This document shows positions 5,193-27,665 of a DNA stretch of 32,000 nt, piece by piece (within the stretch, counting starts at the first letter, position 1; each line of letters begins with the position of its first letter). The notes beneath the pieces are model-generated. The model was not told the DNA's origin. It made no database searches and saw only the letters and a program-made list of their open reading frames with translations. This stretch comes from Bellilinea caldifistulae (GTDB lineage: Bacteria > Chloroflexota > Anaerolineae > Anaerolineales > Anaerolineaceae), in the NCBI RefSeq assembly GCF_001306055.1, contig NZ_LGHJ01000015.1:60001-92000 (forward strand), written 5' to 3'. Position numbers and translations under genes: made by a program.

Positions 5193-5657
5193 TCAGAACG
5201 GGGCGGCGGGCGTAGCCCGCCGCAGGGCGAAGCGCAGACCGGCGGGCGTTAGCCCGCCGGTGAGCGTAGCCCGTCCCGTTCTTGGCGTGAGGCGCAAAGC
5301 CGAGCGATTATGAGCGAGCAACAAGCGAGCGAATGCGAGGCTTTGCAAGGGGAAGCCCCCCTGGGGGGGCGGGGGACTGAGGCGGGGGGGCAGAGCGAGG
5401 CGGGCTTTGCCCGCTGAGCGGAATTGCTTTTGGGGCGGGTTTAGCCGATTGCGGAGCGGAGCAACGGCGTTTGAACCCGCCCCTTACCTTGTCAAGAATA
5501 GGGCTTGTCCTTTGCGGGTTCTTGTGTTTCCGCAAGGTGTAAGCCCTATGGAGTTTTACCACTATATGTGGTGGTGTCTATTGTCACTTGTGCCATATAT
5601 GGGGGTTGTGCTAGATTATTGATATTGTTCGTCTATTCCCATTTTTCGAGGTGAAGC

Positions 5658-6390: not shown

Positions 6391-6635
6391 CTGAATCATG
6401 ATTCACGACTGGTGGCTAGGCTGACTGCGGTGGCCAGTCTGACTGTGGTATGAATCACGACTGGTGGCTAGGCTGACTGCGGCATGATTCACCACTGGTG
6501 GCCAGGCTGACTGTGGCATGATTCACGACTGGTGGCCAGGCTGACTGTGGCATGATTCACGACTGGTGGCCAGGCTGACTGCGGTGGCCAGGCTGACTGT
6601 GGCATGAATCACGACTGGTGGCCAGGTGAATCACT
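6391..6635. repeat. Tandem array of about 6 head-to-tail units of 34 bp, two of them extended to 52 bp by an 18-bp sub-repeat
   Basis: Units lie at 6398-6449 (52 bp), 6450-6483, 6484-6517, 6518-6551, 6552-6603 (52 bp) and 6604-~6632 (partial). Consensus is atgattcacgactggtggccaggctgactgtggc. The array opens with the 12-bp palindrome gaatcatgattc (6393-6404). Confidence 0.9.
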
Positions 6636-6729: not shown

Positions 6730-6794
6730 TAAGTGTTTCAGGGTAAGCCATTGCCCTTGCTTTCAATCATCTAGTTTTTCTCCCTGCTCCCCCA

Positions 6795-7062
6795 CAGCGA
6801 GCGTGGCAATCTCCCGCAAAGCAGGGCAGGAGATTCCTCACTTCGTTCGGAATGACGTTTACGGGTATCCGTCGCCGCGAGCGAGCGCAGCGAGAGCGGC
6901 AATCTCCGGCTAGGCCGTTGCGGAGGCTGGGCGGAGATTCTCACCTGCCCTTTACCGTACGCAGTGCGGGAGATGTCCACCTGCACTGCACCGTACGCAG
7001 TGCGGTGCAAGTGTCGCTTCGCTCGACATGACATTAACCGCGTATCCGTCGCCGCGAGCCGC
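6795..7062 (+). repeat. Composite intergenic repeat, locus B
   Basis: 17-mer at 6803-6819, a second variant gcggcaatctccgg at ~6897, and the core at 6934-7041. It ends 3 nt before the stop of the MBL hydrolase gene. Confidence 0.85.
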
Positions 7063-7064
7063 CC

Positions 7065-7840: not shown

Positions 7841-7950
7841 CATGGGCGTGGCAATCTCCCGCAAGGCTGTTGCAGGGGGGCGGGAGACTCCCCTGCACTG
7901 TAAAGTGTCCCTGCGTTCGAAGTGACGTTAAAAAGGGCATGTCATTGCGA
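7841..7950 (+). repeat. Intergenic repeat, locus C (hairpin 17-mer module plus gcgttcgaagtgacgtta and gtcattgcga motifs)
   Basis: 17-mer at 7848-7864, with right arm gcgggaga complementary to tctcccgc. The gtcattgcga motif at 7941-7950 supplies the stop codon and last codons of the cupin gene. Confidence 0.75.
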
Positions 7951-8453: not shown

Positions 8454-11222
8454 TTATTTGCGCACCAGCGGCAGGTAGATGTAGGCCGGTCCGGAGGTAA
8501 CCTGCACGGTGCGTTCGTCCTTCTTGGATGGATCGCCCTGCGAGGTGAATATCACGTGGATGTCGTCGTCAGTGTGATTCGGCTGGGTGGCGCGCACCCA
8601 CACCCGCACATCCGCCGATTCGCCGGGCGGCAGGCTGGTGATTTTAGAGGCATCGGCCGGGTCGAGCCACAGGCTGAATTCGTTGTTCGCAAAGGAGACG
8701 GTGAAGGTGTCGCCGATATTGCCGTCGTTGCGCACGGTGAAGGTGAAGAAGGCGGTTGTGTTGAAATCAAGATTCCACTCCAACGGGTTGAAGGTTTCAA
8801 CGGTCGGCTGGTAGCGTTTCACCAGCGAGGTTGTTTCGATATCCTGTGTCACAGACTTAGCCGTATTAGTGACAGAAGACAGCTCGATTTGCCCTTCTTC
8901 CACATATTCCTCGTTGCTCTGCCCCCAATCTCCGGACTTGGCCCACAGCAGCAGGGTGCGCTCTTCATTCGGCTGGAGCGGACCGACCTGCGTGATTGGA
9001 TTGCCCTGTAAATCGGTCACCCACAGGGAAATTTTATCGAACGTCAAGGTTATGTTGAATGTTTCGGGGACGTTTCCCTTATTTTTGACGACAATCTCTC
9101 GGTAGTTGGGATCGCCGTTGTAGTAAACCGTTTGAGCTTCGGGTTCGAGCAAATCGGGCTGGTAAAAGGGCGTTGCTGCCCGCAGACCAACTTCCAGGAA
9201 AAGATTGGTAGCATCCTGTATATTGGTAGCATCCTGTATAAAGGAAAATCGGACTTTGCCGCGTTGTAAGGATTGTTCGACAGCCGGGGCGCGGTAGCGT
9301 ACCTTAAAAGTACAAAAAGTATTGTCATTTCGAGGACCGTTACATTCATTATCAATGACTTCAAAGCAATCTCGCTCATCGGCGACTTCACATTTATTGA
9401 GGTTGATATCCACCCCGGTTACGGTGACACTTCCTCCATTCAATCCGAAGAAATAGACATTAAAGAGCTTTTCAGGTTCGCTGTCGTATTCAACAACACC
9501 AAAATCGTGGAAAGAGGGCTGGATGTTGGGGTTGCCGGGCGGGTTGCCCTGATCGCGCAGATAGACCTGCTGGTAAGCGGCCGCTTCACCTTCCGAGAGC
9601 ATATCCGCGCCGGAGGAGAAAGCAACCCAGCGGCCGGTGGCGCTCAACGAGCTGAAGTTGGAGTTGAGTTCCGGCGGTTGACCGCCTGCCGTCAGAGAAG
9701 CGCGCCAGGTTTGGTCGGCCTGCCAGTTGCGTCCAAAAATATCCGGGCAGTTGTTGCTTGTCCAACCTTCCAGATTTTGAATCACACAGGCGTTGTTCAG
9801 GTCGCCTTCAACCAGCTGGTCGTCATATGAGGTGAAGGAAACAATCCGTCCGTCCTCGGAAATGGACGGGTGATAGGACGGTCCCTCTGTGGGCTTATCA
9901 TCCGGTCTCACCGAAATGAGCTGGATTGACGGATTTGATAAATTGCCCTCGTTGAGTTCGGCTTGGTACAGGTAAATCCGAGTCACTGTCCGAGGGGAGG
10001 ACAGATTGATGAGGTCGTTAGTGGATGATTGGAAGGCGACATACAGTTTGTCTTGACCGGGGTCGTAGGTCACCGCCGGGTATTCGGAGGCGCCGTTAGC
10101 CGGTAAACCGCTGGTGTTTTTCGAGATCAGGCGGATCGAGCCATTGTCGCGGTCGAGCAGGAAGATGTTGGCGCGCCGCTGGTGGAGGGGAGCGTTGGGG
10201 TTGTCGGGCGGGTAATTTTCCGCGGGAACGCTGCAATCCAGATTGGTGGCGCGGGAAACGAAGACCACGTAGCGCCCGTTTGTCCCCGGCACGAAGACGG
10301 GGTGGTAGGAATCGCCGTTGGCCGGCGCTCCGCCGCAGCCGCGGCTGAGCAGGGTATGCACAAACTCCTGAGTAAGATTTTCTCCAACGTCGGTTACCTG
10401 CCGGATGAAGATGTCCTTGACGTAATCGTTGCTGTTTTCGCCCAGATCCGCCATGGATTCAAAAACCACATACACCCCCTGGCTGGAGATGAACGTCGCA
10501 TCAGCGACCGGATGGGGGTGGGAGAGTTTGGCTTTGACAGTGCCGTTTGGTTGGGTTGAACAAACCGGCGTTGACCCGCTTAAGGCGCATTCCACATTGC
10601 CGGAATGGAAACCGGCATCGCCTTGGCCTGACGGAGTTGCGGATACCCGGAAGAGGCCATTTGTTTCCCGTTTTGTTTTATCGGTAAAAGTGAAAAAGAT
10701 ATCCGCTTCTTTTTGGCCGGGTTGATCGTAGCCCGAATATTCGGCCGAGGACTGAAACACGATGTACTTGCCATCTCTCGACACGGTGGGGAAGACAGCA
10801 TCCCCATCCAGATTTTCTGAAGAAGCATAATTTGTGATCTTGATTAAGGGATTCGACGGCGTGTCGGAAAATTGGAGAAAGATATCAAAACAGCCGCGCA
10901 GCTGATTGGTGAGTTCATTGACGCAGAAGACATCGCCGTCGTTGTCGCTACCGCCGTCAAGGTTGAGATTGCTTGCGCTGGATGCGAATACGACCGCGGC
11001 GCTTGTATCGTCCCACGATAGGCTGGTGTAGAGGGAATTACCGTCTTTCCCCAGCCCATAAGGTTTACCCACCTCGTTAGGCAAGCCGTGTGAAAGCAAA
11101 TAGGTTGTCCCCAGTTGAGTTTCTGCGTCCGCGCTGACCACCAGCGTTGGCAGCAGCAGGACGACAATCAGCGTCTGCAGCAGACGGCGCAGTCCCGCTT
11201 TGCGTGCGTTTCTTCCCATCAT
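8454..11222 (-). CDS. Large secreted protein: TolB/PD40-like beta-propeller repeats plus C-terminal CARDB/NEW3-like beta-sandwich domains
   Basis: Signal peptide ...LLQTLIVVLLLPTLVVSADA. Recurrent PD40-like blades: DGKYIVFQSSA, NGRYVVFVSRATNL, DGRIVSFTSYDDQL, TGRWVAFSSGADML. The C-terminal repeats include ...VKNKGNVPETFNITLTF... and ...VRNDGNIGDTFTVSF... I prefer ATG 11222, with GGAGG 6 nt upstream, over the GTG at 11237. Confidence 0.85.
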   Translation of the reverse strand: MMGRNARKAGLRRLLQTLIVVLLLPTLVVSADAETQLGTTYLLSHGLPNEVGKPYGLGKDGNSLYTSLSWDDTSAAVVFASSASNLNLDGGSDNDGDVFCVNELTNQLRGCFDIFLQFSDTPSNPLIKITNYASSENLDGDAVFPTVSRDGKYIVFQSSAEYSGYDQPGQKEADIFFTFTDKTKRETNGLFRVSATPSGQGDAGFHSGNVECALSGSTPVCSTQPNGTVKAKLSHPHPVADATFISSQGVYVVFESMADLGENSNDYVKDIFIRQVTDVGENLTQEFVHTLLSRGCGGAPANGDSYHPVFVPGTNGRYVVFVSRATNLDCSVPAENYPPDNPNAPLHQRRANIFLLDRDNGSIRLISKNTSGLPANGASEYPAVTYDPGQDKLYVAFQSSTNDLINLSSPRTVTRIYLYQAELNEGNLSNPSIQLISVRPDDKPTEGPSYHPSISEDGRIVSFTSYDDQLVEGDLNNACVIQNLEGWTSNNCPDIFGRNWQADQTWRASLTAGGQPPELNSNFSSLSATGRWVAFSSGADMLSEGEAAAYQQVYLRDQGNPPGNPNIQPSFHDFGVVEYDSEPEKLFNVYFFGLNGGSVTVTGVDINLNKCEVADERDCFEVIDNECNGPRNDNTFCTFKVRYRAPAVEQSLQRGKVRFSFIQDATNIQDATNLFLEVGLRAATPFYQPDLLEPEAQTVYYNGDPNYREIVVKNKGNVPETFNITLTFDKISLWVTDLQGNPITQVGPLQPNEERTLLLWAKSGDWGQSNEEYVEEGQIELSSVTNTAKSVTQDIETTSLVKRYQPTVETFNPLEWNLDFNTTAFFTFTVRNDGNIGDTFTVSFANNEFSLWLDPADASKITSLPPGESADVRVWVRATQPNHTDDDIHVIFTSQGDPSKKDERTVQVTSGPAYIYLPLVRK

Positions 11223-11365
11223 GCTCAACCTCCGCACCCCGCCGTTTCACCTCCGGCGAAATTTTACTGAAAACAATTTTCCTGCAAACTTCATTCTAAC
11301 AAATTCGCGGTTTGTTTGGGTTTTCAGTTTTGTTATGTCACTTCAACCCTGCCGATGATTTTGGA

Positions 11366-11490
11366 CGGCGGCGTGGCAATCTCCCGCAAGGCACCCACCT
11401 GCGTCTCCCCCAAAATCGTTTGCGATTTTGGGGGAGACGGGAGGGTGGAATTTCTCACCCGCCCTGTGCCAAAGTCAGGGCGGGTGTGGC
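11366..11490 (+). repeat. Intergenic repeat, locus D, with two perfect hairpins
   Basis: 17-mer at 11373-11389. A perfect 16-bp stem lies at 11403-11438 (gtctcccccaaaatcg/cgattttgggggagac). A perfect 11-bp stem lies at 11456-11486, 8 nt past the stop of the 513-aa gene; it may act as a terminator but has no U-tract. Confidence 0.8.
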
Positions 11491-11494
11491 TTCC

Positions 11495-13036
11495 TTATGA
11501 CCGGGACAGGGGGAAGGCTGGCTCCCCGCCGACGGCGCTCACCCGCAGGCCGGCCTGCGGCGTCCACACCACCCGGCGCAGTAACAGCGGGCGCGCCGCA
11601 CCGCCGCCCGAAAGCCGCGCCCATTCGCCGGTCAGCGGCTCACCCAGGCGGGCCGGCCGTCCGCTGAGAGCCGTCAGCCGTCCATCCATCCCCAGCAGCC
11701 AGGCGGGGTTGTCTTCGGGCGGCAGCGGCTCGATGATCAGGTCGCGCTCGGCGTTGACCAGCGCTCGCAGCCGCCGGCCTTGGGTATCCCCGCGGCTGAG
11801 CAGGTCAAGCAAAACCTCGCCGCACGGACGCAGTCCCTCGTCTGCAAAGGGAACCACCCCGTCCAGTTCGGCGCGCAGGTGAACGCTGCGGAGGAACTGC
11901 CCGCCGGCAGGAGCAGCGCACAGCTCAAGCACGCGCGTCCGGCGGCTTTGCCCGGCAGAGATGTAAAAATTGAGGTCGGTCAGCCCGCCGGAGGTGTCCA
12001 CCCAGGCCGAGCCGTTCCACTGGAGCATCTTGCCGCGCGGGTAGGGATCGCCGCTTTCGCGATAGAGGATGTAGTAATGGCTGGTGTTGAGCGCGCCGCT
12101 GCGCCCGATGCGCAGCCAGTAAGGCGTGTTAGCCTGCAAGAGGGGCGGCTGCTCGAAGCGGAAGCGCGCCCACATCCGCCCGCTGCTGATCAGAGCGGCC
12201 GGTAAACCGACGGAAGCCAGCCCGGCGCCGGGCACGCCGTTCTGATCGGCGCACACCGTCAGGGTGATCTCATCGCCCGGCGTGCCGCTGCGCCTCAGAT
12301 TCAGCCCGGCTTCCAGCAGGTAAAGCGGTCCATCGGCGGTTTGAAAACTTTGCGCCAGCAGGGCATCACTGGTGGCCGAGCGCCCCAGCGTTTGCGTGGT
12401 TTGGGCGGCCTCCACAAAGCCCTCCACCCCGCCACCTACCCGCAGGTAAGCCCAGTTGAGGGTGCTGAACCAGCCGCGCCCGATCAGGCGCATTGCCGGG
12501 GGCGAGGGGCGCGCCGGCAGGAACGCCTGCCCCTGCGGCAGGGCGCTGCCCTGCAAGGCGGCCCGGCAGGCAGCCAGGAGGCTTTCCGGCTGTTCCTCGT
12601 TCAGGTGCAGCAGGCGTTCCTTGCGCCCGTAACGGCTCTGGCTGAGGCGGTCCTCCACCCAGTCGCTGCGGGTGCGCCGGGCGGTGAAGGGCGGCTCATT
12701 GACCAGCGGGCTGTAGACCGCTGCCACGCGGTTGGCGAGATGGGAAAGGTCAAAGTACAGCCCGGCCGCGCCGTTGAGAATTTCCACCCGTCCGATAAAG
12801 CCGTTCCAGCAGGCTTCCCCGGCAGGCGAGTAGAGGATCAGCGGGCGGCGCAGCGCATCGGCGGCCCATTCAGCCGCATCCAGGAGCGAGCAAGCGCCAC
12901 AATCGGCGCGCAGCACGGCAACGGCGGCGCCGCCCGGTTCTTCCCACACCAGCCGTTCGACCCGGATAGGGAAAGGCGGCGGCAGGCTGGGGGTATTGTC
13001 CCGCAAAAACCACCGAATGGTGAGCGGTTCGTTCAT
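11495..13036 (-). CDS. Phage-cluster protein of unknown function (513 aa; candidate tail, nozzle or fibre component)
   Basis: Long intact ORF whose ATG overlaps the upstream stop (ATGA at 13033-13036). I recognise no motif. It is the last gene of the cluster. Confidence 0.7.
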   Translation of the reverse strand: MNEPLTIRWFLRDNTPSLPPPFPIRVERLVWEEPGGAAVAVLRADCGACSLLDAAEWAADALRRPLILYSPAGEACWNGFIGRVEILNGAAGLYFDLSHLANRVAAVYSPLVNEPPFTARRTRSDWVEDRLSQSRYGRKERLLHLNEEQPESLLAACRAALQGSALPQGQAFLPARPSPPAMRLIGRGWFSTLNWAYLRVGGGVEGFVEAAQTTQTLGRSATSDALLAQSFQTADGPLYLLEAGLNLRRSGTPGDEITLTVCADQNGVPGAGLASVGLPAALISSGRMWARFRFEQPPLLQANTPYWLRIGRSGALNTSHYYILYRESGDPYPRGKMLQWNGSAWVDTSGGLTDLNFYISAGQSRRTRVLELCAAPAGGQFLRSVHLRAELDGVVPFADEGLRPCGEVLLDLLSRGDTQGRRLRALVNAERDLIIEPLPPEDNPAWLLGMDGRLTALSGRPARLGEPLTGEWARLSGGGAARPLLLRRVVWTPQAGLRVSAVGGEPAFPLSRS

Positions 13037-14364
13037 GGCAGTTTCACCCGCGGGGCGTAGAAGGCCTGCACCTCACAGCGGCTGGTGAGCGGTGCGCCGC
13101 TTTCGGTTTCCCACAGCAGGTACAGGCGGTAATCGCTGCCGGGCAGCAAATGGAGCGGGCTGCCGGTAAGGGCGTGGGTGAAGGCGGTTTCCCCGGCGGA
13201 AGAACGACTGTACGCTATCTGCCTTTCGCCGTCCACCCAGACCTCGCTCGCCGAGGCGCCGTTGAGGGCGTGCAATTCCAGCCAGCCCTCCGTGGGCAGC
13301 AGGTGAACGAAATCCACCTCCAGCGTTTTCAAACTGGTATCGCGGCTTTCGGCGCGCAGTTCGAGTGTGAGCGCGGCCGGGGTGATCTGCGGCAGCCAGC
13401 CCGGCGGCAGGTGAAGGCCACCGGTCACTTGCAGGGAGCGCTGGGTTTGGACTGCGACATCCGGGCTTTCTTCCAGCGGATTGGCATTCCCGTCCAGCAG
13501 CCGCCAGCGCAGGTAGACCCCCTCCGGCGGCGGACTGAAGAGCCGCAGCACCGGACGGAACAGCCGCCCGGCACAAAACCCCAGCCGCTCAGCCGAAAGC
13601 GTCCAGCGCAGCAGGCTGGCCGAATCGGAGCGCGTCCATTGCACCCGGCGGTAAGCCCCGCCGCTGGCAGCACCGCTGTTCAGCACATTGCTGGCGGTAC
13701 AGTCGGGCCCGGCTGCGGCGCTCTCCCCCTCCAGCGAGTGGAGAAAAGCCTCGCCGCCCCAGGTCAGGCGACTGCCGGCGGCCAGGATGACCTGTCGAAG
13801 AGTCTCCCCCATCGGTTCGAGCAACCGCAGGCGCAGGCTGAGGGGGGCGGGCTGGCCGCCGCTCAGGTCGGCGGCGCGGATATCGGCAAAGTTCTGGTGA
13901 GCGGGGTCGCCGTCGTGGTGATTGTACACCGCCAGCCCGGTTTCGCGTTGAACGCCGTTGGCATTGGTGAGCGGCAGGGCGGCGGCCGGTTTACGCCAGT
14001 CGGCGGCCCGGCGCAGGTACAGGCGCAGGCTGTAACCGCCGCGCGCCGGTCTCTGGTTGAGCGGGTCGCTTTCCAGCCAGCCTTCGTACAAACTGGCGTA
14101 AAGCGGCTCATCTGCCGGCTCAATCCGCCGTTCCAGCACGGCAAAGGGAGTCCGGCTCACCGCCGCCAGGACTGCTTGCAAGCCTTCCAGCCACTCGCGG
14201 ATGCCCGCCCCATGCAGTCCCAGCACGGCGCACTCGATCACTTCCCCGCCGTCCTGGGATGGGTGCTGTTCCAGCCAGCGCAGGCCCTCCAACGGCGGCT
14301 GGGGGACACTCGACTGCAACACCCAGGCGGGCGAATCGGGCAGGATGATGCTGAGGGAAAACAT
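13033..14364 (-). CDS. Phage-cluster protein of unknown function (443 aa)
   Basis: Intact ORF that starts 5 nt after the upstream stop, with ggag 8 nt upstream. I recognise no motif. Confidence 0.7.
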   Translation of the reverse strand: MFSLSIILPDSPAWVLQSSVPQPPLEGLRWLEQHPSQDGGEVIECAVLGLHGAGIREWLEGLQAVLAAVSRTPFAVLERRIEPADEPLYASLYEGWLESDPLNQRPARGGYSLRLYLRRAADWRKPAAALPLTNANGVQRETGLAVYNHHDGDPAHQNFADIRAADLSGGQPAPLSLRLRLLEPMGETLRQVILAAGSRLTWGGEAFLHSLEGESAAAGPDCTASNVLNSGAASGGAYRRVQWTRSDSASLLRWTLSAERLGFCAGRLFRPVLRLFSPPPEGVYLRWRLLDGNANPLEESPDVAVQTQRSLQVTGGLHLPPGWLPQITPAALTLELRAESRDTSLKTLEVDFVHLLPTEGWLELHALNGASASEVWVDGERQIAYSRSSAGETAFTHALTGSPLHLLPGSDYRLYLLWETESGAPLTSRCEVQAFYAPRVKLP

Positions 14365-14369
14365 GGCGG

Positions 14370-14813
14370 TTACTCCATCGGCCAGCCGGGCTGTAGCGGG
14401 TCTTCGGCGGGCGGGTAGGGCGGGTTTTCGGCTGATTGCAGGCGGCGCAGGCGGTAGCGGTTCAGGCCGGCCAGCCCTTTTTGAAAGTGATCCAGCAGGA
14501 TGCGGGCGGTGGTCAGTGCGGCGGCCTGCTGCCCGGCGTGAAAATCGAAGGCGTCCAGCCGTTCGGCTGCCCGCCCCAGCAGGGCGTAGCCGAGCGCGCC
14601 GCGCAGCAGCAGGCTGGCGAGAATCGGCGGCAGGGTGGTCGGGTTGGTCTCGCCGTCCAGTCCGTTGATCAGCCAGTCCTCACCGCTGGCGGCCAGCAGG
14701 TCGTGGTAGGCCTGGCGCAGGGCGTGGGTCAGTTCGGCCTCGCTCCAGATGACCGCCGGCAGGTCGCGCAGAATCAGACGCAGTTCGGTAATCAGGCTGC
14801 TGGTGGTGTTCAT
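14370..14813 (-). CDS. Possible head-tail connector / head-completion protein (147 aa)
   Basis: From ATG 14813, which forms an ATGA overlap with the upstream stop: MNTTSSLITELRLILRDLPAVIWSEAELTHALRQAYHDL. It resembles the N-terminal pattern of gp6-type head-tail connectors. The functional call rests on position and weak resemblance only. Confidence 0.45.
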   Translation of the reverse strand: MNTTSSLITELRLILRDLPAVIWSEAELTHALRQAYHDLLAASGEDWLINGLDGETNPTTLPPILASLLLRGALGYALLGRAAERLDAFDFHAGQQAAALTTARILLDHFQKGLAGLNRYRLRRLQSAENPPYPPAEDPLQPGWPME

Positions 14814-15010
14814 GGGCGGGTCTCCGCATTCCAGTGGAATTTGCGCCCGTCGGCGGCGATGATCGTCCACCCGCCGCTGCCGTCCGAACGGTAAGCGAGG
14901 GGCGGCAGTTCCAATCCGAGGGCGCGGCAGGCCAGCTGGATGGACGGCGGGAGTTCTGCCGCGGCCGGCGACCGATCAGGCCGGGAGGGCTGCCTGGGGC
15001 GCTGATTCAT
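14810..15010 (-). CDS. Small hypothetical protein (66 aa) in the phage cluster
   Basis: Internal ATG 15010 forms an ATGA overlap with the holin-like gene's stop, and its own stop overlaps the next start. It is Pro/Arg-rich at the N-terminus and has no TM segment. Confidence 0.4.
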   Translation of the reverse strand: MNQRPRQPSRPDRSPAAAELPPSIQLACRALGLELPPLAYRSDGSGGWTIIAADGRKFHWNAETRP

Positions 15011-15216
15011 CGGCGCGGCTCCGGGCTGCGGCCGGCATCTTCGATGGCGACGCCGGTGGAGTAGACCGCCAGGGCGGCGATGACGCCCTGAACGGCCTGC
15101 CAGCCGTTCAATTCGCCGCTGCTCCAACCGGCGGCGATGGTCACCAGGGCGGCAATCAGCGCCCAGAATTTGCGGGAACGCAGCAGGCGTTCCAGTTGAG
15201 AAAGAATGGGCTGCAT
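15007..15216 (-). CDS. Holin-like small membrane protein (69 aa, 2 predicted TM, charged C-terminus)
   Basis: TM segments FWALIAALVTIAAGW and VIAALAVYSTGVAI, with tail EDAGRSPEPRR. A strong RBS aaaggagg precedes it. It lies next to the GH25 endolysin. Confidence 0.5.
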   Translation of the reverse strand: MQPILSQLERLLRSRKFWALIAALVTIAAGWSSGELNGWQAVQGVIAALAVYSTGVAIEDAGRSPEPRR

Positions 15217-15347
15217 GTTGATTTTTCCTCCTTTATATTGAAAAGAAAGGTGGTTGAAGAAAGGGATGGGTCTGGCGGGAGATCGCCGCGCTTCCTGGTG
15301 GCGGCCCGCAATGACGGAAACCGGTTGATGTCACCCCGAGCGTCAAC

Positions 15348-16208
15348 TTAACATTGTCTGCTTTTTTCAAGGTGCAAATCGGGGTGGGCCGCCCACAAAC
15401 GGCGCACCATCTCTTCCAGTGAAGGCTGGGGCGGCGGGTTGGCAGGCGCTGCCAGACCACACCAGGCTCGCAGGTCGTTCGGGCTGCCGTTGAACCAGTT
15501 CAGGTCGAGCGGCTGCCCGCCGCCCCCCGGCAGGACAAAACGATCACCGCTGAACTGCCACATGCGCCAGTCGGCAGCGCCGGCCGGTAAAGCCGGGGCA
15601 AACATCTGCGGCAGGTGCTGGCGGCGCAGGGTTTGCCAGTCCAGGCTCAATTTGCCGCGCGGGTAGGGGTATTGTGCCAGCCACAGGTCCCAGCCGGAAA
15701 GCCAGTCGAGCATCGGGGCTGCGTAGGCCTGCACAAAGGTCGTGCGGGTGTAGATCAGGGTCGGTTTGGCCGTGCGACGGGCGATGCCCTCGCTCACCAG
15801 CCGGGCACAGCGGCTGATCTGCGCCGGAGGCAGGATGCGGGTGATGTTGTGATTGGCCCACTCCTCCCAATCGAGCCAGTACTGCTCCACATCCACTGCG
15901 CAGAAGTCCAGTTGCACATCTTCGCTGGCGCGCAGGAAGTTTTCCACCTGACGGTCGGGGTCGTGAGTTGGGTCGCACCAGTGATAACCCCCGGTCAGCA
16001 GGCCGGCGCGGCGGGCGGCGTTGGCGTGCTGAATGCGCCGCCCGTCCCGCAACTGGCTGCCCTGACTGATCTTGACCACCGCAAAAGTCGCGCCCGCGCC
16101 ACTCAGCGCCCGAAAATCCACAAAGTCGTTCCAGTGGGAGACATCCACGCCGAGGGCGCGCTCGGCTGGCGGCGTAACGGGTCGGGGTACAGCCATCGGC
16201 TCGTTCAT
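15348..16208 (-). CDS. GH25 muramidase (phage-type endolysin)
   Basis: LGVDVSHWNDFVDFRALSGAGATFAVVKISQGSQLRD...GGYHW is the classic GH25 N-terminal pattern (GIDVSxWQG...FviIKatEG...GaYHy). It starts 2 nt after the capsid gene's stop. Confidence 0.85.
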   Translation of the reverse strand: MNEPMAVPRPVTPPAERALGVDVSHWNDFVDFRALSGAGATFAVVKISQGSQLRDGRRIQHANAARRAGLLTGGYHWCDPTHDPDRQVENFLRASEDVQLDFCAVDVEQYWLDWEEWANHNITRILPPAQISRCARLVSEGIARRTAKPTLIYTRTTFVQAYAAPMLDWLSGWDLWLAQYPYPRGKLSLDWQTLRRQHLPQMFAPALPAGAADWRMWQFSGDRFVLPGGGGQPLDLNWFNGSPNDLRAWCGLAAPANPPPQPSLEEMVRRLWAAHPDLHLEKSRQC

Positions 16209-16210
16209 GT

Positions 16211-18139
16211 TCAGGCGACGTTGGCTTTGTAAAGCGGGCGGTAATCGGCGACGAACACGCTCACCCAGTGGCGCACCTTCATGCGGATTTCATCGTGGGT
16301 GAACAAGGCCCCGCTGGTCTCGCGGTCGGCGACGAAAATCTCCGGCAGCAAGCCGAACCGTTCGCCGAGGATGATGCCGGGGGCCAGTTTCGGGTCGGCA
16401 ACGGCTGCCCAGTCGTTGGGGTCGCCGAATTCCGGGCAGGTGATTACATCGCCCATCTCGCCGCGCTGCAGGTTTTCGGAGAAGATGCCGGTTTCCCGCT
16501 CGAAAGCCGGGTAGAGAATGCGCATGGCGGTCAGGCGCAGACTGCGCGGCACAATCAGGTAGCGGGCATCCAGCGCCAGTTTGGGGGCGCTGCCGCCCTC
16601 AGCCACCAGCATCGGCTGCTCGTAGATGGCTTTGCTGGCGGCTTCCCAAGCCTCGCCGGAAAGGGCCGCCGTGCCCACATTGTGGTGATTGGCGGCATGA
16701 AACACGGCGCTGCCATCCGCCATTTGCGGCCCAACCCCGTTGTTGGCGGTGAAGATGCTGCCGACCAGCGCCGAAATGCGCCGCAGGGCAGCCGATGCCA
16801 GTTTGCGCGGGTACTGGCGCAGTTTGTGGGTTTCGTCGCGCTCGAACATCTCCAGCGTCAGCGCCACAAACCCGCCGTACTTGCCCCATTCGCCCACCTC
16901 CGCCGAATCGCGGATTGCCAGCTCGGTGTAGGCAGCCCCTTCGGCGACACCCGGCAGGACGCTCACTTCCCCCACCAGCACGCCGGTGATCGGGTGCAGG
17001 TTGCTGAAATGCTCCACGCTGACAATGGGTTCCCACCAGCGGTAACCGCTGCGCCCCAGTTCCTCCCAGCCCATCACTACCATTTTGTTAAGGGCGTCTT
17101 TGAGCAGTCCGGGCAGAGTGGCGGTGGTGGAAAGGGTGACTCGTTCGGGGTAGTAGCCGCCGTAGAAGTTGTAGTCACCGGTTAGCAGGGTGTAAAGCTC
17201 GCGGATGCCGCTCAGGCGGGCGGCTTTCAGGCCGTTCAGAGCAGCCGGCTTGGGAATACCCAGCAGATCATGGACGGCCGCCTTCAATTGATCCTCCGGC
17301 GAGTAGATCGCTTCGATGCGCGCCGGGCCGTTCACCCACTGGCCGGCGGTCAATTCGCTGACCATCTGGCGGGTGTCCTCGATGGTGCGCTGCAAATCGG
17401 CCGGGTCGAACGTCCGCCCGCTGAACTGGCGGCGGATGCGCTCGGCTGCGGCGGTCGGCAGGTGGGCGGCAGCCAGCGACTGGTCGAGCAGCAGGCGGCA
17501 CAATTCCCCTTCCAGCGCGGCAGCCGATGGCTGAGGTGGGGCGGCGGGCGTCCCTGGCGCATCAGCGGGGATTGGGGTTGGGTTGAGTTCGTTCATCAGG
17601 TTTCCTCCATCGGTTGAAAAATGAGTGAAATGGGTTTGCGGGGATTGCTGGTTGAGGGCGCGCAGAAAGGCACCACCGCGCGCCGGTTGAATCACACAAT
17701 CCACCGAAAGGACACGCACAATTTTTTCGACCTGCCGCCCGCGTGCGGTGAACAGCAAATCGGCAGAAAAACCGACCTGCGGGCGGACGGATTCGTCCAG
17801 CATGGCGCTGCCGAGGGCGCGCAGCAGCGCAGCCGCCGGCCCCAGCGGTTTAAGGCGCAGGCGGATGCCCTGACGCGCCTCGTCCCACTGCGGGTCATAT
17901 ACCACCCCGGCCAGATCGCGCAGGCTGCGCTCGCCGAGATGATGGTCAAGGTAGCACTCGCGCCCGTCCCACAACGGCAGGGACTGGCGCAGCACCTCGG
18001 CGGTGAAGTGCCAGCCGTTGCCCTCCCCGGCGGTGATGGCGAGGATTTCAAATTCGCCCAACGCCTCGCCGTTCAATTGCAGACGGGCGGCGCAATCCAT
18101 CACGGTGGATGCGGGTGAAATCTGAACCGGCGGGTTCAT
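16211..18139 (-). CDS. Prohead protease (HK97/S78-like) - scaffold/delta-like linker - major capsid protein fusion (642 aa)
   Basis: N-terminal motifs fit the S78 prohead protease pattern: YLDHH, VGFSADL and VLSVDCVIQPARGGA. Residues ~180-300 are Ala/Leu/Gln-rich and helical. The C-terminal ~340 aa are capsid-like and sit directly after the portal gene, with an ATGA overlap at 18136-18139. Confidence 0.75.
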   Translation of the reverse strand: MNPPVQISPASTVMDCAARLQLNGEALGEFEILAITAGEGNGWHFTAEVLRQSLPLWDGRECYLDHHLGERSLRDLAGVVYDPQWDEARQGIRLRLKPLGPAAALLRALGSAMLDESVRPQVGFSADLLFTARGRQVEKIVRVLSVDCVIQPARGGAFLRALNQQSPQTHFTHFSTDGGNLMNELNPTPIPADAPGTPAAPPQPSAAALEGELCRLLLDQSLAAAHLPTAAAERIRRQFSGRTFDPADLQRTIEDTRQMVSELTAGQWVNGPARIEAIYSPEDQLKAAVHDLLGIPKPAALNGLKAARLSGIRELYTLLTGDYNFYGGYYPERVTLSTTATLPGLLKDALNKMVVMGWEELGRSGYRWWEPIVSVEHFSNLHPITGVLVGEVSVLPGVAEGAAYTELAIRDSAEVGEWGKYGGFVALTLEMFERDETHKLRQYPRKLASAALRRISALVGSIFTANNGVGPQMADGSAVFHAANHHNVGTAALSGEAWEAASKAIYEQPMLVAEGGSAPKLALDARYLIVPRSLRLTAMRILYPAFERETGIFSENLQRGEMGDVITCPEFGDPNDWAAVADPKLAPGIILGERFGLLPEIFVADRETSGALFTHDEIRMKVRHWVSVFVADYRPLYKANVA

Positions 18140-19572
18140 TCCAGACCTCCGTTTTTGGGCTCGCCGCTGGTTAAATCCACCTTGCCTTCGGGGAAGCCGC
18201 CCCTCTGCCGTCCGGCCGGCCCGGCGGGCAGAGCGGCTTTGCCGCCTTCCAGCAGTTCCTCCACCTCGGCCGTCTCGCCGATGAAGCGGTAAACCACCCG
18301 CAGCAGTTCGCGGTCGTCAATCAGGCCGCGGTCGCGCAGCTGCCCCACCACCGCCAGAATGTGGTTGCCGGCCAGTCCGAGGGCGACATTATCGCGCGCT
18401 GAAAGGTCGCCGCCATGCACACGGATGACGGCCTGCCCGTCCACCCGTCCGCCGCCGGGACGGCGGCCCTGCGCCAGAGCGCGGCGCTGTACGGCAATCC
18501 GCAGTAAATCGGCAATCACCTGCAGAAAGAAGGCCTGGCGCTGCTCAAAGCGGCGGTAGGTCGGGCCGCCGGCGGCTTCGGCGGTGGTGCGCGTGCTGGA
18601 TTCCGGCTCGGCGAGGAAGTGCAGCGGCAGGCCGGCTCCGGCGGCAATCATCTTCTTGATCGCCAGCCCGTCGGTGTTGGCGTCATCGGCTTCGAGGCGC
18701 GGCTGAATCACCTCCCAGGTCTCGTTTTCATCGGTCACCAGAATCGAACCGGGGGCCGGCGGCTGGGCATTCAGGCGCTGCTGGCGTGCCAGCCGTTCGC
18801 CTTCGCCGGTAAAGCGCGAGCGCACCACGTACAAAAACGCCGTGCGGTAGCGGTTCAGTCGGGCGCGGTCTTCCAGCCAGTTGGCGTAACGACTCAGCCA
18901 GCGCAGCAGGGGCAGCAGATCCGATTCGCCCCACACGCAGCCCGCCGGCCGGTTGATGGCGTAGTGGCGCATTACCGCCGGAAAGCGGCCGCCGGCGTCC
19001 GGCCCATCCTCCAAGGGCTGATAGGCCGGCCAGGCCTGTACCTCGCGGCCATCCAGTCCGGGGACCGGTTGGTACTCCAGCGGCTGATCAACATCGTTTG
19101 GGCGGGTGCGGATCTCGTCAATCTGGGCGGCCGGCACAGCCCGGAAGTAACTCATCCCGGCGGGGTCGGTGGAAATCAGGATGAACAGATTACCGCTACG
19201 GGTCAGTTCGTCGCACCATTCGGGCAGGCGCAGGCTCAACTGGTTGAGCGGGTGATGCCACAACTGGTGCAAAAATCGGCTGGTAGCCGGGTGCTCGCAG
19301 GCAAAGGTGATTCCGCCGCCGACCACGTACTGGGTGGTCAGTTCGACGATCCGCCGTGCCAGCGGATTGACCCGCCAGGCTTCCAGCGCCTGCTGGAGCG
19401 CCTCGCGCCTTTCGGCAAACGGGCGCTCATGAGGCGGGGCGGAAGCGGATCGAGCGCCCAGGGTAAAGGTATTGTCAGTTTCGGTTTGCAGGGCTGCCCG
19501 CACCTGAAGGCGCACTTCATCCGCCAGCAGACGGCGGCGCAGCCCTTGCCAGAAAGTTTCTTTCATCTTCAC
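18136..19572 (-). CDS. Phage portal protein
   Basis: 478 aa, positioned between TerL and the protease-capsid gene. The segment WGESDLLPLLRWLSRYANWLEDRARLNRYRTAFLYVV resembles portal family core motifs. RBS gaggtg is present. Confidence 0.75.
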   Translation of the reverse strand: MKMKETFWQGLRRRLLADEVRLQVRAALQTETDNTFTLGARSASAPPHERPFAERREALQQALEAWRVNPLARRIVELTTQYVVGGGITFACEHPATSRFLHQLWHHPLNQLSLRLPEWCDELTRSGNLFILISTDPAGMSYFRAVPAAQIDEIRTRPNDVDQPLEYQPVPGLDGREVQAWPAYQPLEDGPDAGGRFPAVMRHYAINRPAGCVWGESDLLPLLRWLSRYANWLEDRARLNRYRTAFLYVVRSRFTGEGERLARQQRLNAQPPAPGSILVTDENETWEVIQPRLEADDANTDGLAIKKMIAAGAGLPLHFLAEPESSTRTTAEAAGGPTYRRFEQRQAFFLQVIADLLRIAVQRRALAQGRRPGGGRVDGQAVIRVHGGDLSARDNVALGLAGNHILAVVGQLRDRGLIDDRELLRVVYRFIGETAEVEELLEGGKAALPAGPAGRQRGGFPEGKVDLTSGEPKNGGLE

Positions 19573-19593
19573 CTCGTTTCAGAAGACAGGGGT

Positions 19594-21132
19594 TCAAAAA
19601 CCGCGGTCAAGGTCGCGCAGCGGGTCACAGCCCGGCACAATCAGCGTTTCACCGCCGGACGGCAGGGGTTGATCATCCAGCAGACTGACCAGCGCCGCTG
19701 AGATGAGCAGGTCGTCGTGGGCTGGCTGACCGCTGAGCGGATCGCGGCTGCCATCCGGTACGCCCCAGCGCATTCGTTTTTCGGGGCCGGGCAGAATCTC
19801 GTACTGGCACAAGTCCAGTTGACGGGAGAACAACCGGCCGGCTTCGTCCTGTTCGGCATCGGCGGCTTCTTTCCATCGTCCGCTTTCCACCAGCGAGAGA
19901 AAATCCCAGCCCAGTTTGCTCTTGCTGGCGGTCGAGAAGGTGAAGGGAATCACCCGGCCCGGCAAAGCCCGGCTGAGAAAATCCGCCAGCCCGGCTCCGA
20001 TGCCGGTGGCATCCACCACCACCCGCCAAGGCCGCCAGATTTCCGCCAGAGCACGTAATTCGGTGTACAGGTCGCTGTGGCGGGTGCCCACCCACAGGCG
20101 GCGTCGAACGCAGCGGTAGGTGGGGGCGCGCAGCAGCGGGTCGGCGCAGGTGCTGCGGTCGACCGCTACAATCGTCAGGGCGGTGGCATCCCGGGCTGCA
20201 TTGAGGGGGTTTTCGCCCGTAGCGGGTGTACCGGTGGTTTCGTCCGCCCCGGCCACATCCAGCAAAAAGGCGTAGATTTCCCCCGGCTGCGGCTGGTCGA
20301 GCAGGCGGTGACTGCCGGTCAGGCGCGCCCGCCGTTCCGGCGGGAACAGTCCGCCCTGCCCGTCAATTTCCTCGCTGTAGTACTGGCTGCGGATGAATGG
20401 GTGCTGGCGGCCGAGGCGCGCCACCTGTTCGGCGACAAACCGGGCGTAGGCGGGTACCTCGGCGGCAACCTGATCGGCGCTGGCGATGAAGACCCGCTGT
20501 ACGCCGTCCTGCTGCTGGGCATGGCGCGCCAAACGCAGTTCGCGTGCCAGCAGAGTCTGGCTGGTCCAGGCGGTGCCCCACAGGACGCGGGTGGCGTTGG
20601 TGGAGGCTGCCATCGGGGCAATTTCTTTGTCGAATTTTTCGATTTCCACGTCCTGGGCTTCGTCCACTTCCAGCAGGGCGCTGGCGGTTGCCCCGACGAT
20701 GTTGCTGTGGGGTTCGCCGCTCAAAAAGAAAATCCGCGCCCGTCCGACGCGGTAGATGTAGCCGCTTTCGCGCATCCAGTTCCCGTTGAGCAGGCTGTTG
20801 CGTTCCAGCACGCGCTGCAAGCGGCGCATGGCGTTCAGCGATTGCGGTTTCCAGGTCGGCGAAATTTTGACAATTTCGGCCTCGCAGTCCTGCAAACAGG
20901 TCAGCAGGTAGGCCTCCAGCTGCGCCTGCACCTCGTTTTTACCCGACTGGCGCGGGAACAGCACCACGAAAGTCAACCCCTGGCGGTACAGCACCGAGCG
21001 GGCAACTGCCCGAATGACTTCCGCCTGATAGGAACGCAGGCGGATTTTGCCGAATGCCCGCGCAAACAAGCACGGGTCTTGCAGGGCTTCGCGCAGGGTG
21101 ATCAGGGAAGGGTCTTTTTTCTCCGATTGCAT
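19594..21132 (-). CDS. terL: Terminase large subunit
   Basis: From ATG 21132, with RBS aaggagg: Walker A-like FPRQSGKNE, Walker B-like LLEVDEAQDV, and a C-terminal nuclease-like region (VVVDATGIGAGL). The track's extension to 21369 has no support. Confidence 0.85.
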   Translation of the reverse strand: MQSEKKDPSLITLREALQDPCLFARAFGKIRLRSYQAEVIRAVARSVLYRQGLTFVVLFPRQSGKNEVQAQLEAYLLTCLQDCEAEIVKISPTWKPQSLNAMRRLQRVLERNSLLNGNWMRESGYIYRVGRARIFFLSGEPHSNIVGATASALLEVDEAQDVEIEKFDKEIAPMAASTNATRVLWGTAWTSQTLLARELRLARHAQQQDGVQRVFIASADQVAAEVPAYARFVAEQVARLGRQHPFIRSQYYSEEIDGQGGLFPPERRARLTGSHRLLDQPQPGEIYAFLLDVAGADETTGTPATGENPLNAARDATALTIVAVDRSTCADPLLRAPTYRCVRRRLWVGTRHSDLYTELRALAEIWRPWRVVVDATGIGAGLADFLSRALPGRVIPFTFSTASKSKLGWDFLSLVESGRWKEAADAEQDEAGRLFSRQLDLCQYEILPGPEKRMRWGVPDGSRDPLSGQPAHDDLLISAALVSLLDDQPLPSGGETLIVPGCDPLRDLDRGF

Positions 21133-21259
21133 AAACCTCCTTGTGAAAAGAAAATGGGGGCGGGCTGAGAGGGGGGCCGGCGGCAGGTTCCGCTCCGCGA
21201 GGGGATGCCGTCCGGGGTTGAAGGTCGTCCACAACCCAGCCCGCCCGGCTGGGAGGGCA

Positions 21260-21571
21260 TCAGTCCTGGCTTTCGCTGAGCAGGGAGTGGATGCCATTGG
21301 CTTCCATTTCGGTGCGAATCTCCTCCAGCGTTGCCCGAACCAGATCGCCGCTGGTTTCCTGCTCGGCAAGCGACTGCTCGGTTTTCAGCAGGGTTGCCAG
21401 GCTGGCGCAGGCGCGCGAAACGGTCTGCAACACCGAGAGCAACTCGCCCAGCGAGATGCCGTCATCCGCCAGCGACTGGGCGCGCCGAATCAGCAGGCGC
21501 ATCATGCGAATTTCCTCGCTCAGTTTGCCGCCGTTGCGGGGGCGTTTGGATGGGCTGACGGTTCGGCTCAT
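21260..21571 (-). CDS. Small helical protein at the head of the phage cluster (possible small terminase or regulator)
   Basis: 103 aa with RBS gggaggg. It has a basic N-terminus (SPSKRPRNGGK), then predicted helices. It is the first gene of the co-directional cluster. Function is assigned from position only. Confidence 0.45.
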   Translation of the reverse strand: MSRTVSPSKRPRNGGKLSEEIRMMRLLIRRAQSLADDGISLGELLSVLQTVSRACASLATLLKTEQSLAEQETSGDLVRATLEEIRTEMEANGIHSLLSESQD

Positions 21572-21611
21572 TTTCCCTCCCGAAATAGAATTTATGTTCT
21601 ATTACAGAGTG

Positions 21612-21640
21612 AGTGTAGAACATACAAAGCCGCCCGTCAA
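21612..21640 (-). promoter_or_regulatory. Candidate promoter of the phage-like operon, overlapped by an inverted repeat
   Basis: On the minus strand, TTGACG lies at 21640..21635 and TACACT at 21617..21612, 17 nt apart. The 8-bp inverted repeat atgttcta (21594-21601) / tagaacat (21616-21623) overlaps the -10 and the start region. Confidence 0.3.
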
Positions 21641-21968
21641 TCTGTCAAAAGGTGCAATTTCTGGCATCGAATCTGCACCCTGGTGCAGTGTCCTATGTCC
21701 GATTTCGATGATGATTACTTTACAAATGGGTTACAACCGCTTTACAGTTGCCTTTCAGCGCCAATTTTTTGGCTCAGCCTGCGCTATACTCAAAAAGCGG
21801 TCAAAAGTGATGGACAAACCGTGAATTGTCCAAAAACGGTTACAAAAAAGTGTATAGCGGATGACAAAACACCAAAAACTAACCAAAAACTATTGACTTT
21901 TATACCGCACTGCCTTAATGTAAAAGCAGCAGGAAAAGACCTTTTCTGCCGCGGAAGATAGGAGCCGT

Positions 21969-27420: not shown

Positions 27421-27665
27421 GGACATTAACCGGTTTACGTCATTGCGAACCGCCACAGGCGGCGTGGCAATCTCCCGCAAAGGTGGGTGGGAGATTGCCA
27501 CCTGCCCTTTACCGAAGGCAGTGCGGGAGATGTCCACCTGCGCTGCACCGAACGCAGTGCGGTACAAGTGTTGCTGACGCTCGACATGACATTAACCGCG
27601 TTTTCGTCACCGCGAGCCGCCGCAGGCGGCGCGGCAATCTCCTGCAAAACCGTTGAGGAGGTTCT
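27421..27665 (+). repeat. Composite intergenic repeat, locus E
   Basis: The 17-mer at 27464-27480 sits within a perfect 11-bp hairpin, ggcaatctccc/gggagattgcc. The core lies at 27491-27599, and a second variant gcggcaatctcctgcaa at ~27627. The element fills the convergent gap between the PA14 gene and the CNNM gene. Confidence 0.85.

Follow-up and report, generated by a model that had tools for sequence, protein, structure and literature searches.

A Gene Transfer Agent–Like Viriform Candidate Fixed in the Chromosomes of Anaerolineaceae

Introduction

What is a compact set of phage-type packaging, head, and lysis genes doing in a bacterial chromosome when nothing around it looks able to move or replicate it? 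This question is raised by a 32-kb stretch of Bellilinea caldifistulae DNA (hereafter the window, in whose numbering all positions are given), in which open reading frame (ORF) calls delimit a module of 10 intact genes, all on the minus strand and running from 21571 to 11495 over ~10 kb. An earlier note on this DNA had described ten codirectional, full-length genes, as the ORF calls bear out, and had proposed a system like a gene transfer agent (GTA), domesticated or satellite-type, that would be neither a normal prophage nor a decaying remnant; it had also recommended structure prediction, a comparison of synteny across related genomes, and an analysis of the ratio of nonsynonymous to synonymous divergence (dN/dS). 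Here, we argue that the module is reasonably likely to be a domesticated, chromosomally fixed, host-regulated, GTA-like “viriform” candidate of the Anaerolineaceae, which would make DNA-filled, very-short-tailed particles. We class it as a module that works in the manner of a GTA and stop short of counting it among them.

Results

Conservation and Inheritance of the Module

Homologs of the capsid protein of the module, a protease–scaffold–major capsid protein (MCP) fusion, were found at 55–87% identity in 58 species-representative Anaerolineaceae genomes. The carrier genera are Bellilinea, Longilinea, Ornatilinea, Thermanaerothrix, Anaerolinea, and Flexilinea, and the cultured carriers are B. 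caldifistulae, Longilinea arvoryzae, Ornatilinea apprima, and Thermanaerothrix solaris; over the family, the identity of the fusion spans 55–97%, and at least 591 MCP protein clusters were counted, many of them on contigs of 0.2–4.9 Mb. The g1–TerL–portal–MCP–g6–(g7)–g8 block is syntenic throughout. A divergent Tad operon lies upstream of it in the window and at the homologous loci L001–5, L008, L012, L016, and L049, and a PD40-propeller gene lies downstream in the window and at L001, L003, L013, L017, L034, and L049, including in genomes whose Tad proteins are only ~50% identical to those of the window. The comparison of synteny thus places the module at the same locus, between the Tad operon and the PD40 gene, across genera.

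The divergence of the module follows that of this neighborhood. Between the window and L001, synonymous divergence (dS) amounts to 0.40–0.68 in the cluster and to 0.49–0.70 in the Tad genes, so that, by this sequence measure, the module is as old as its host flanks. In the same comparison, dN/dS is 0.07–0.13 for the head genes (g1, TerL, portal, and MCP), a level indicative of strong purifying selection, 0.09–0.11 for the Tad genes, and 0.29–0.46 for g7–g10. Head-protein and Tad-protein distances are moreover strongly correlated (r = 0.97; 36 nonindependent pairs from nine taxa). These comparisons show a module inherited vertically with the chromosome and maintained by purifying selection.

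Nothing that could mobilize the module was detected nearby: no integrase, repressor, or replication protein occurs among the ORFs of the whole window, in agreement with what the earlier note had said of the cluster and its flanks, no att-like direct repeats were found in the window, and the annotated neighborhoods on contigs of 0.67–1.05 Mb hold only host genes around the module, with no integrase, repressor, or replication genes among them. In some genomes, host genes split the module. At L088, TerL stands apart from the other module genes, with genes for 2-oxoglutarate dehydrogenase (E1/E2) and a DUF362 gene in between, and at L038, L041, and L051 the MCP subcluster has neither TerL nor portal within 10 kb. 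The remainder at L088 (1–21977; ENA contig_12144, 667 kb) is ordered MCP–g6–g8–Dit–Tal–636-aa protein–GH25–portal. Two differing copies of the module were also seen on two contigs (L046 and L050) of a single metagenome-assembled genome, MFD04716.bin.2.60, which reflects either a duplication or a mixed bin.

A first alternative would be a nonfunctional prophage remnant, namely a deletion derivative that has not yet decayed. Such a remnant would account for the lack of tube, tape-measure, integrase, and replication genes, for internal stops in a few loci, and for a host repeat inserted in the cluster. We nevertheless hold it to be hardly probable at all: the ten genes of the window are intact and translationally coupled, the module is kept across the whole family at 55–97% capsid identity, dN/dS stays at 0.07–0.13 at a dS of ~0.6, promoter and operator are conserved, and a distant relative described below shares the same tubeless set, so that the tail loss is not recent. 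The conserved locus, the flank-equal dS under purifying selection, the codivergence with the Tad operon, and the split clusters speak likewise against a normal prophage, as had been anticipated. With regard to intactness over the family, single uninterrupted tblastn matches were obtained for TerL in 45 of 52 loci, for the portal in 54 of 64, and for the MCP in 63 of 76, these counts leaving out loci cut by contig ends; many of the loci with interrupted matches come from nanopore assemblies.

Packaging, Head, and Lysis Genes

The ten genes are closely packed, with spacings from g1 to g10, in gene order, of 127, 27, −4, 2, 131, −4, −4, 5, and −4 nt, where the 27-nt gap between TerL and portal assumes the ATG start of the latter. 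The four ATGA overlaps (13033–36, 14810–13, 15007–10, and 18136–39) lie exactly where they had been placed previously, but the accompanying claim that all remaining gaps measure 2–25 nt fails for g1/TerL (127 nt), GH25/g6 (131 nt), and TerL/portal (27 nt). GGAGG-type ribosome-binding sites precede g1, TerL, portal, MCP, and g6.

Family scans (Pfam, PHROG, and NCBIfam) put a name on four of these genes: TerL, portal, the capsid fusion, and GH25. TerL (19594–21132; 512 aa) matches Terminase_6C (E = 2e-5) as well as phrog_5909, phrog_2, and phrog_5713; it is 88% identical to its copy in L001 (dN/dS 0.11), and its closest homolog in a cultured phage, Bacillus phage vB_BboS-125, is 32% identical. 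The portal (18136–19566; 476 aa, or 478 aa with the GTG at 19572 taken as its first codon) matches phrog_10963 (E = 1e-28), with a dN/dS of 0.135 and at most 28% identity to portals of cultured phages. The 642-aa fusion (16211–18139) matches Phage_capsid_4 over residues 338–639 (E = 1.7e-27), the NCBIfam family scaf_prot_MCP2 of prohead protease/MCP fusions (E = 2e-31), and phrog_4523 (“major head and protease protein”). Judged by these matches, it is made of a prohead-protease-like N-terminal domain, a scaffold or linker, and a C-terminal HK97-fold capsid domain of ~300 residues. Two of its residues, H66 and S125, are unchanged in 20 homologs, which would fit a serine protease. A profile of the capsid family (A6) had no match among solved structures. 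At L033 (5787–7604) and L073 (4637–6469), the fusion carries a stop that falls in both cases on query residue 247/248 of the alignment and separates the protease part from the scaffold–capsid part; this may be a natural two-gene form and not a pseudogene.

The 103-aa protein g1 (21260–21571) accompanies both of the tail-end variants described below (dN/dS 0.07) and aligns to the C-terminal two-thirds of a 135-aa protein encoded ahead of TerL at locus L074, which matches small-terminase PHROGs (phrog_1889, E = 5e-7). The chromosomal copies of g1 are devoid of a ~30-aa GQPGNKNALKHGFYS segment of that L074 protein, and the g1 family profile returned only coiled-coil-like noise among solved structures. 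We infer that g1, which is helical, is probably a truncated small terminase (TerS). The 147-aa g8 (14370–14813), kept in both module variants (dN/dS 0.29), is a candidate head–tail adaptor or connector, its family profile having a single, weak match among solved structures, to the “portal adaptor protein” 9gb5_I (E = 0.014).

As for lysis, the GH25 muramidase (15348–16208; 286 aa; dN/dS 0.21) is an endolysin by its matches to Glyco_hydro_25 (E = 2e-22) and phrog_291 (E = 8e-25). The 69-aa g6 (15007–15216), which follows the MCP gene at almost every locus, has two hydrophobic segments and no significant match to Pfam, PHROG, or NCBIfam; with 94–97% identity and a dN/dS of 0.04–0.08, no other gene of the cluster is as conserved. 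Its hydrophobic segments, together with its small size and the endolysin close by, make it a candidate holin. The 66-aa g7 (14810–15010; dN/dS 0.46), which has homologs in the Bellilinea group, bears a conserved (I/V)IAADGRK motif that is also visible in a 167-aa protein of L027. Over g6–g10, the same family scans returned nothing except a choice-of-anchor R domain in g10.

A Tail Tip without a Tube

The last two genes, g9 (13033–14364; 443 aa; locus tag BECAL_00513 in GCA_001050215.2, contig DF967971.1) and g10 (11495–13036; 513 aa), had been taken for ORFans in a cluster with no recognizable tail genes. The structural comparison that had been recommended, run on these two proteins with AlphaFold2 (alignments of 17–19 homologs as inputs) and Foldseek, overturns this view, as both models have folds like those of phage tail-tip proteins. 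The model of g9 (pLDDT 90.3, pTM 0.87) has as its top PDB match the Bxb1 tail-tip chain 9d93_Mc (E = 1.3e-7), followed by the lactococcal phage p2 baseplate chains 4v5i_AS and 2wzp_P (E = 3–4e-6), a baseplate chain of mycobacteriophage Douge, and the SPP1 Dit 2x8k, with E-values of 1e-7 to 1e-3 overall; it is thus modeled as a tail-tip ring protein like the siphophage distal tail protein (Dit), with extra beta-sandwich domains. The model of g10 (pLDDT 86.2, pTM 0.84) matches phi812 baseplate chains (E = 1.5e-7), the Sf11 tail, the lambda and Bxb1 tail tips, and the Douge central fiber gp20 in the PDB, and, in BFVD, minor tail proteins of Arthrobacter, Listeria, and Mycobacterium siphophages along with a “tip attachment protein J.” Its residues 212–318 form an inserted lectin-like domain (NCBIfam choice_anch_R, 40.1 bits for a cut-off of 30), so that the model points to a Tal-like or minor-tail-like central hub or fiber protein equipped with a lectin-like domain. 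TM-scores are low, both proteins being multidomain, and the labels “Dit-like” and “Tal-like” therefore do not imply an identical assembly. The dN/dS is 0.41 for g9 and 0.35 for g10. Nothing resembling a tail tube, a tape measure, a chaperone, or a terminator was found among the cluster proteins by family scans and structures; the missing tube and tape measure had been pointed out before, and the terminator adds to them.

The tail end actually exists in two forms. The Dit/Tal pair is found in the window and in Bellilinea, Longilinea, Thermanaerothrix, and others, whereas the second form consists of a 168-aa protein (A4) and a 251- or 430-aa protein (A5) with a sialidase-type C-terminal domain. 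Profile–profile comparison of g9/g10 with A4/A5 detected no homology, and we treat the two forms as either nonhomologous or too diverged; the A4 profile had no match among solved structures, and the 251/430-aa protein had a match to the C-terminal domain of a sialidase only. In this second variant (L027 6277–10248; L087 11908–16170), the GH25 gene has moved between TerL and portal and the Dit/Tal genes are replaced. Its 251-aa protein shows an N-terminal YPLSS..GQPT..HYN.LR.DA motif and a PA2794-sialidase-like C-terminal domain; a conserved zinc-ribbon/transmembrane protein and an SH3-domain/transmembrane protein come next in L027 and L087 and may be part of the system.

A Conserved Promoter–Operator Region

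The module had also been described as lacking regulation genes of any kind, a picture to which a putative operator, conserved family-wide at the module promoter, now has to be added. By pattern match, two sigma-70-like promoter candidates lie 5′ of g1 (21612–21648, minus strand), TTGACA-18-TATGTT and TTGACG-17-TACACT, with 10 and 9 of the 12 consensus positions, respectively, and an alignment of the g1/Tad intergenic region reveals a TTGACAG(A/G)TTGAC block shared by six loci of the Bellilinea group. Flanked by the −10 element and the ribosome-binding site of g1, the palindrome TAGAACATAAATTCTA (21586–21601, minus strand), of family consensus TAGAAC-N4-DTTCTA, occurs only once in the window (0.03 expected by chance). 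It recurs (≥10/12 matches) 0–125 nt upstream of the g1 homolog in 42 of 43 loci, and only 45 sites with at least 11/12 matches exist in the 1.32 Mb of loci fetched, nearly all of them 5′ of a g1 homolog. The split or rearranged loci L038, L051, L076, and L048 have their own copy of the operator directly upstream of the MCP gene. No match of ≥10/12 was found at the L088 locus, and the stray sites at L016:16271 and L041:2204 have no SOS gene beside them.

The LexA repressor of Dehalococcoides binds a GAAC-N4-GTTC motif. The LexA box of Firmicutes and Actinobacteria is likewise GAAC-N4-GTTC (PMC3323433), and the core of the operator resembles this LexA/Cheo box. The surrounding region from g1 to the divergent TadE gene (21572–21968; 400 bp) is highly conserved in six Bellilinea-group genomes and contains repeated TTGTAACC / CTGTAAA motifs as well as the block AGTATAGCGCAGGC, which suggests that the Tad pilus operon and the particle module are regulated jointly or in a complex way.

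A damage-responsive operator would also suit another purpose, SOS-type operators being typical of bacteriocins and tailocins as well. The closest alternative to the GTA-like reading is indeed that of a particle or lysis system that is domesticated and functional yet not meant for gene transfer, its packaged DNA being incidental: the particles might be killers or decoys, or the module might drive programmed lysis with release of extracellular DNA in filaments or biofilms, or it might interfere with related phages through superinfection exclusion or capsid hijacking. The evidence for domestication applies to it equally, the lysis genes stand within the operon with g6 as the most conserved gene, and a tubeless tail makes DNA delivery uncertain. 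However, purifying selection acts on TerL, the portal, and the putative TerS remnant no less strongly than on the capsid, which speaks for selection on DNA packaging itself, and the exchange between lineages of a receptor-binding-type tail tip, with the lectin-like domain of g10, suggests that particles must attach to cells. On balance, we regard this alternative as rather unlikely, and the GTA-like reading remains the one that we develop below.

A Rearranged, Integrase-Linked Relative

The capsid gene is present on 25 IMG/VR contigs, 24 of which are 4–8-kb fragments of the module itself. One 25-kb contig, IMGVR_UViG_3300048599_000874 (L074 1–21929; L086 12800–16848), carries a rearranged structural set of 26–58% identity to that of the module, with TerS-like, TerL, protease–MCP fusion, portal, adaptor-like, Dit-like, and Tal-like genes. 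These are linked to genes for a tyrosine integrase, ParA, a Rep-like wHTH protein, an HTH_17 excisionase-like protein, DUF3560, and a low-GC AAA_15 + PIN_8 pair. In the capsid tree, L074/L086 branches near the base, outside the main chromosomal clade. It has no operator, and neither a tail tube nor a tape measure was found on it; because its gene set is tubeless too, the missing tail genes do not look like a recent deletion, and the stub tail seems ancestral. The composition of the contig is patchy, so the integrase linkage could be coincidental, and when IMG/VR was scanned again with the capsid of L074, no further integrase-linked relatives came up. This contig may show either a mobile form ancestral to the chromosomal module or a chance neighbor.

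This relative bears on the idea that the module is itself an active mobile element, such as a small temperate phage, a phage-plasmid, or a capsid-forming satellite, reinserting at a preferred site by means of a recombinase encoded elsewhere or of a helper. The tyrosine integrase, the ParA, the Rep-like protein, and the excisionase-like HTH protein of L074/L086, the 25 IMG/VR contigs with the capsid gene, and a module GC content that departs from that of the flanks at every locus are what could be said for it. We consider it very improbable, given that no integrase or att-like repeats appear in the window and no integrase in the annotated long contigs, that dS equals that of the flanks, divergence tracks the Tad operon, and both flanks are conserved across genera, that clusters split by metabolic genes keep intact parts, that 24 of the 25 “viral” contigs are mere module fragments, and that L074/L086 stands outside the main chromosomal clade and without the operator.

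Base Composition

As had been noticed for the gene at 8.4–11.2 kb, the GC content of the cluster (0.63–0.70) exceeds that of the adjacent propeller gene (0.51–0.58), and the Tad side is at 0.52–0.61. The head module is richer in GC than its flanks in 37 of 37 loci, by 10 points on average, and its GC partly follows that of the host (r = 0.67, slope 0.43). In the window, the excess of module over flank is 8.7 points at GC1, 4.0 at GC2, and 7.2 at GC3, when the GC elevation of the regions encoding the Rhodobacter capsulatus GTA (RcGTA) arises through GC1 and GC2 only (PMC7360931).

Discussion

In the scenario that we favor, a host repressor, most likely LexA, would sit on TAGAAC-N4-DTTCTA just downstream of a sigma-70-type promoter until DNA damage or a related signal lifted the repression, whereupon g1–g10 would be transcribed as one translationally coupled operon. 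The protease–scaffold–capsid fusion would assemble on the portal and process itself, and TerL, aided by g1 as a TerS remnant minus its N-terminal segment, would load the head with DNA, probably by a headful mechanism and from any DNA at hand. The g8 adaptor would then close the portal, the g9 Dit-like ring and the g10 Tal-like hub with its lectin domain would make up a stub tail that has neither tube nor tape measure, and the GH25 muramidase together with the small membrane protein g6 would lyse the producer.

GTAs, as viriforms, have been defined by six features, namely proteins derived from caudoviricetes, the packaging of mostly random host DNA, endogenization, often at several loci, a head too small for the element's own genome, a mostly vertical inheritance with host codiversification, and the delivery of DNA to cells (Kogay et al. 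2022, PMC9662315). Proteins derived from tailed phages are present here (TerL, portal, HK97-type capsid fusion, Dit-like, and Tal-like); endogenization is full, with no integrase, att site, replication gene, or repressor in the window or on the long contigs and with clusters split in L088, L038, L041, and L051; and vertical codiversification is seen in the conserved flanks, dS, and r = 0.97, all relative to flanking genes only. For the packaging of random host DNA, the sole hint would be that the putative TerS remnant g1 lacks the N-terminal segment of the L074 protein, and delivery to other cells is the least certain step, in a module without tube and tape-measure genes.

The comparison with RcGTA (Rhodogtaviriformidae, Alphaproteobacteria) is instructive in this regard. 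Both are compact clusters of head, packaging, and tail-tip genes without integrase or replication genes, endogenized, vertically inherited and codiverging with the host, sometimes spread over several loci, and apparently under the control of host regulators in place of a phage repressor. RcGTA is also said to have a reduced small terminase, and g1 seems likewise reduced. In both, GC stands above that of the surrounding genome (PMC7360931). The module differs, however, in its independent ancestry and its protease–capsid fusion, with capsid and portal <30% identical to those of any cultured phage; in having no tail tube, tape measure, or head spikes, over ~10 instead of ~15 kb; in an endolysin and a candidate holin placed inside the operon; in a raised GC3; and in its occurrence in Chloroflexota.

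In VSH-1, another GTA, the lysis genes likewise adjoin those for head and tail, and agents that damage DNA act as inducers. VSH-1 (Brachyspira), Dd1, VTA, and BaGTA are independent domestications of tailed phages (PMC11841831); they have no sequence relation to the module, and they differ from it by complete tails and an experimental definition. With capsid-forming phage-inducible chromosomal islands (cf-PICIs), the module shares a small terminase–portal–protease–capsid–connector block without tail tube. These islands are mobile, possess an integrase, att sites, regulators, and a replication module, and borrow the tails of their helpers. In contrast, the module has no integrase, replication, or regulator genes, is inherited vertically at a fixed locus, and brings its own tail-tip and lysis genes. 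Nor does it look like an intact temperate prophage, since integrase, att sites, repressor, and replication genes were not found in the window, nor were tube, tape measure, and terminator in the cluster. Of the interpretation offered by the earlier note, the domesticated, GTA-like half is therefore the one that gains from the shared locus, dS, codivergence, and split clusters, and the satellite half loses ground for want of integrase, att sites, and replication genes and in view of vertical inheritance.

The closest cultured phage for capsid and portal is Microcystis phage Mae-JY22 (24–29% identity), which also has a protease–capsid fusion and in which the genes after the annotated tape measure, downstream of the capsid, hold the positions of Dit and Tal. 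Mae-JY22 is, unlike the module, a complete 41-kb phage with seven genes between the capsid and the Dit-position gene; one of the seven is the annotated tape measure, the others would, to judge by position, encode connectors, tube, and chaperones, and this block is absent from the module. L074/L086 shares with the module the same structural set, likewise free of tube and tape measure, and is set apart by a longer TerS with a GNKNALKHG segment, by its rearranged order, by its linkage to an integrase and to defense-type genes, and by the missing operator.

Several points weigh against the GTA-like reading. Everything said here of the module is deduced from its genes. At ~10 kb, the cluster could fit an ordinary capsid, so that an inability to package its own genome is not arguable from its size and this feature of GTAs may fail. 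Genes for a tail tube, a tape measure, and a terminator were sought without success, which makes the infectivity of the particles uncertain; tail parts may have their genes at other sites. In the operator, the right half-site reads GTTC, with its G in place, at only 7 of 37 sites, and LexA is a guess drawn from the likeness of the motif. Vertical inheritance is gauged against flanking genes only, not against a species tree. Internal stops interrupt TerL, portal, or MCP at a minority of loci, for instance TerL at L003 and the portals at L072 and L079, and they may be real decay or assembly errors. Finally, the integrase-linked L074/L086 is GC-rich too, and this, together with the raised GC3, means that high GC may be ancestral and not the outcome of GTA-type selection. 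For these two reasons, elevated GC, although considered as a GTA signature, is downgraded here to a compatible, nondiagnostic trait.

A bolder version of the GTA-like reading, which we put forward only tentatively as a possibility short of an even chance, is that of an independently evolved GTA family that would be the first in Chloroflexota and would have been fixed ever since the Anaerolineaceae arose, whose tail would consist of a Dit ring and a Tal hub only and whose dispersed parts would be coordinated by a LexA-type operator. If this were true, DNA damage would be linked to chromosome-wide DNA export in bacteria of digesters and sediments; the Anaerolineaceae are abundant in anaerobic digesters and sediments. 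If functional, the module would give this family an extra route of gene exchange and would show that a head with a Dit–Tal tip can suffice for delivery. In the library of papers searched, no relevant account of a GTA or a conserved prophage module from Anaerolineae or Chloroflexota turned up. One recent review raises the question of whether the GTAs known outside Alphaproteobacteria are outliers of their clades and of what separates GTAs from dead prophages (PMC11841831), and examples from outside a few lineages are explicitly lacking in the field. The present candidate offers unusually clear genomic signatures on this matter, namely fixation at one locus over the family, flank-equal dS, and strong purifying selection, to which split clusters sharing one operator and an integrase-linked relative without it can be added. 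Its occurrence in cultured strains makes particle induction and the sequencing of packaged DNA feasible.

Other Features of the Window

The flanks are as previously described, a secreted propeller gene on one side and a Tad operon on the other. The other sizeable ORFs of the window are ordinary host genes (MFS, DUF2089, MBL, cupin, PD40 propeller, TadE/TadG, CorC/CNNM, NTP-transferase, ArsR-DUF2087, and EamA), and its sole tRNA gene, a tRNA-Gln (30139–30211), lies 8.5 kb off the module, past the Tad operon. A 721-bp difference from L084 was discarded, as it proved to be merely an assembly gap of Ns.

The window also contains composite host repeats akin to repetitive extragenic palindromes (REP), with the core CGTCATTGCGA...GGCAATCTCCCGCAA, in its intergenic regions (4925–5194, 6773–7063, 7845–7869, 11370–11394, and 27433–27660); this family includes a 228-nt unit present in two copies of 81% identity. 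A diverged copy had been reported inside the cluster at 15268–15316, and we recover it at 15270–15320 (minus strand), in the 131-nt gap between GH25 and g6, with ~80% identity to the copy at 27434–27493; at the equivalent site, L001 has a stub only and L059 a longer array. Another intergenic stretch (6397–6626) is a tandem array with periods of 34 and 52 nt, made of 4.5 copies of the unit GGTGGCCAGGCTGACTGTGGCATGATTCACGACT with 92% matches.

The downstream neighbor kept in several genera encodes a secreted protein with PD40-propeller and Ig domains (8454–11237, minus strand); at L049, this gene begins 22 nt past the last tail-end gene. It evolves much faster than its neighbors, with 45% identity and a dS of 1.14 between the window and L001, and may be a surface protein under diversifying pressure; a functional link between this protein and the module is also possible.

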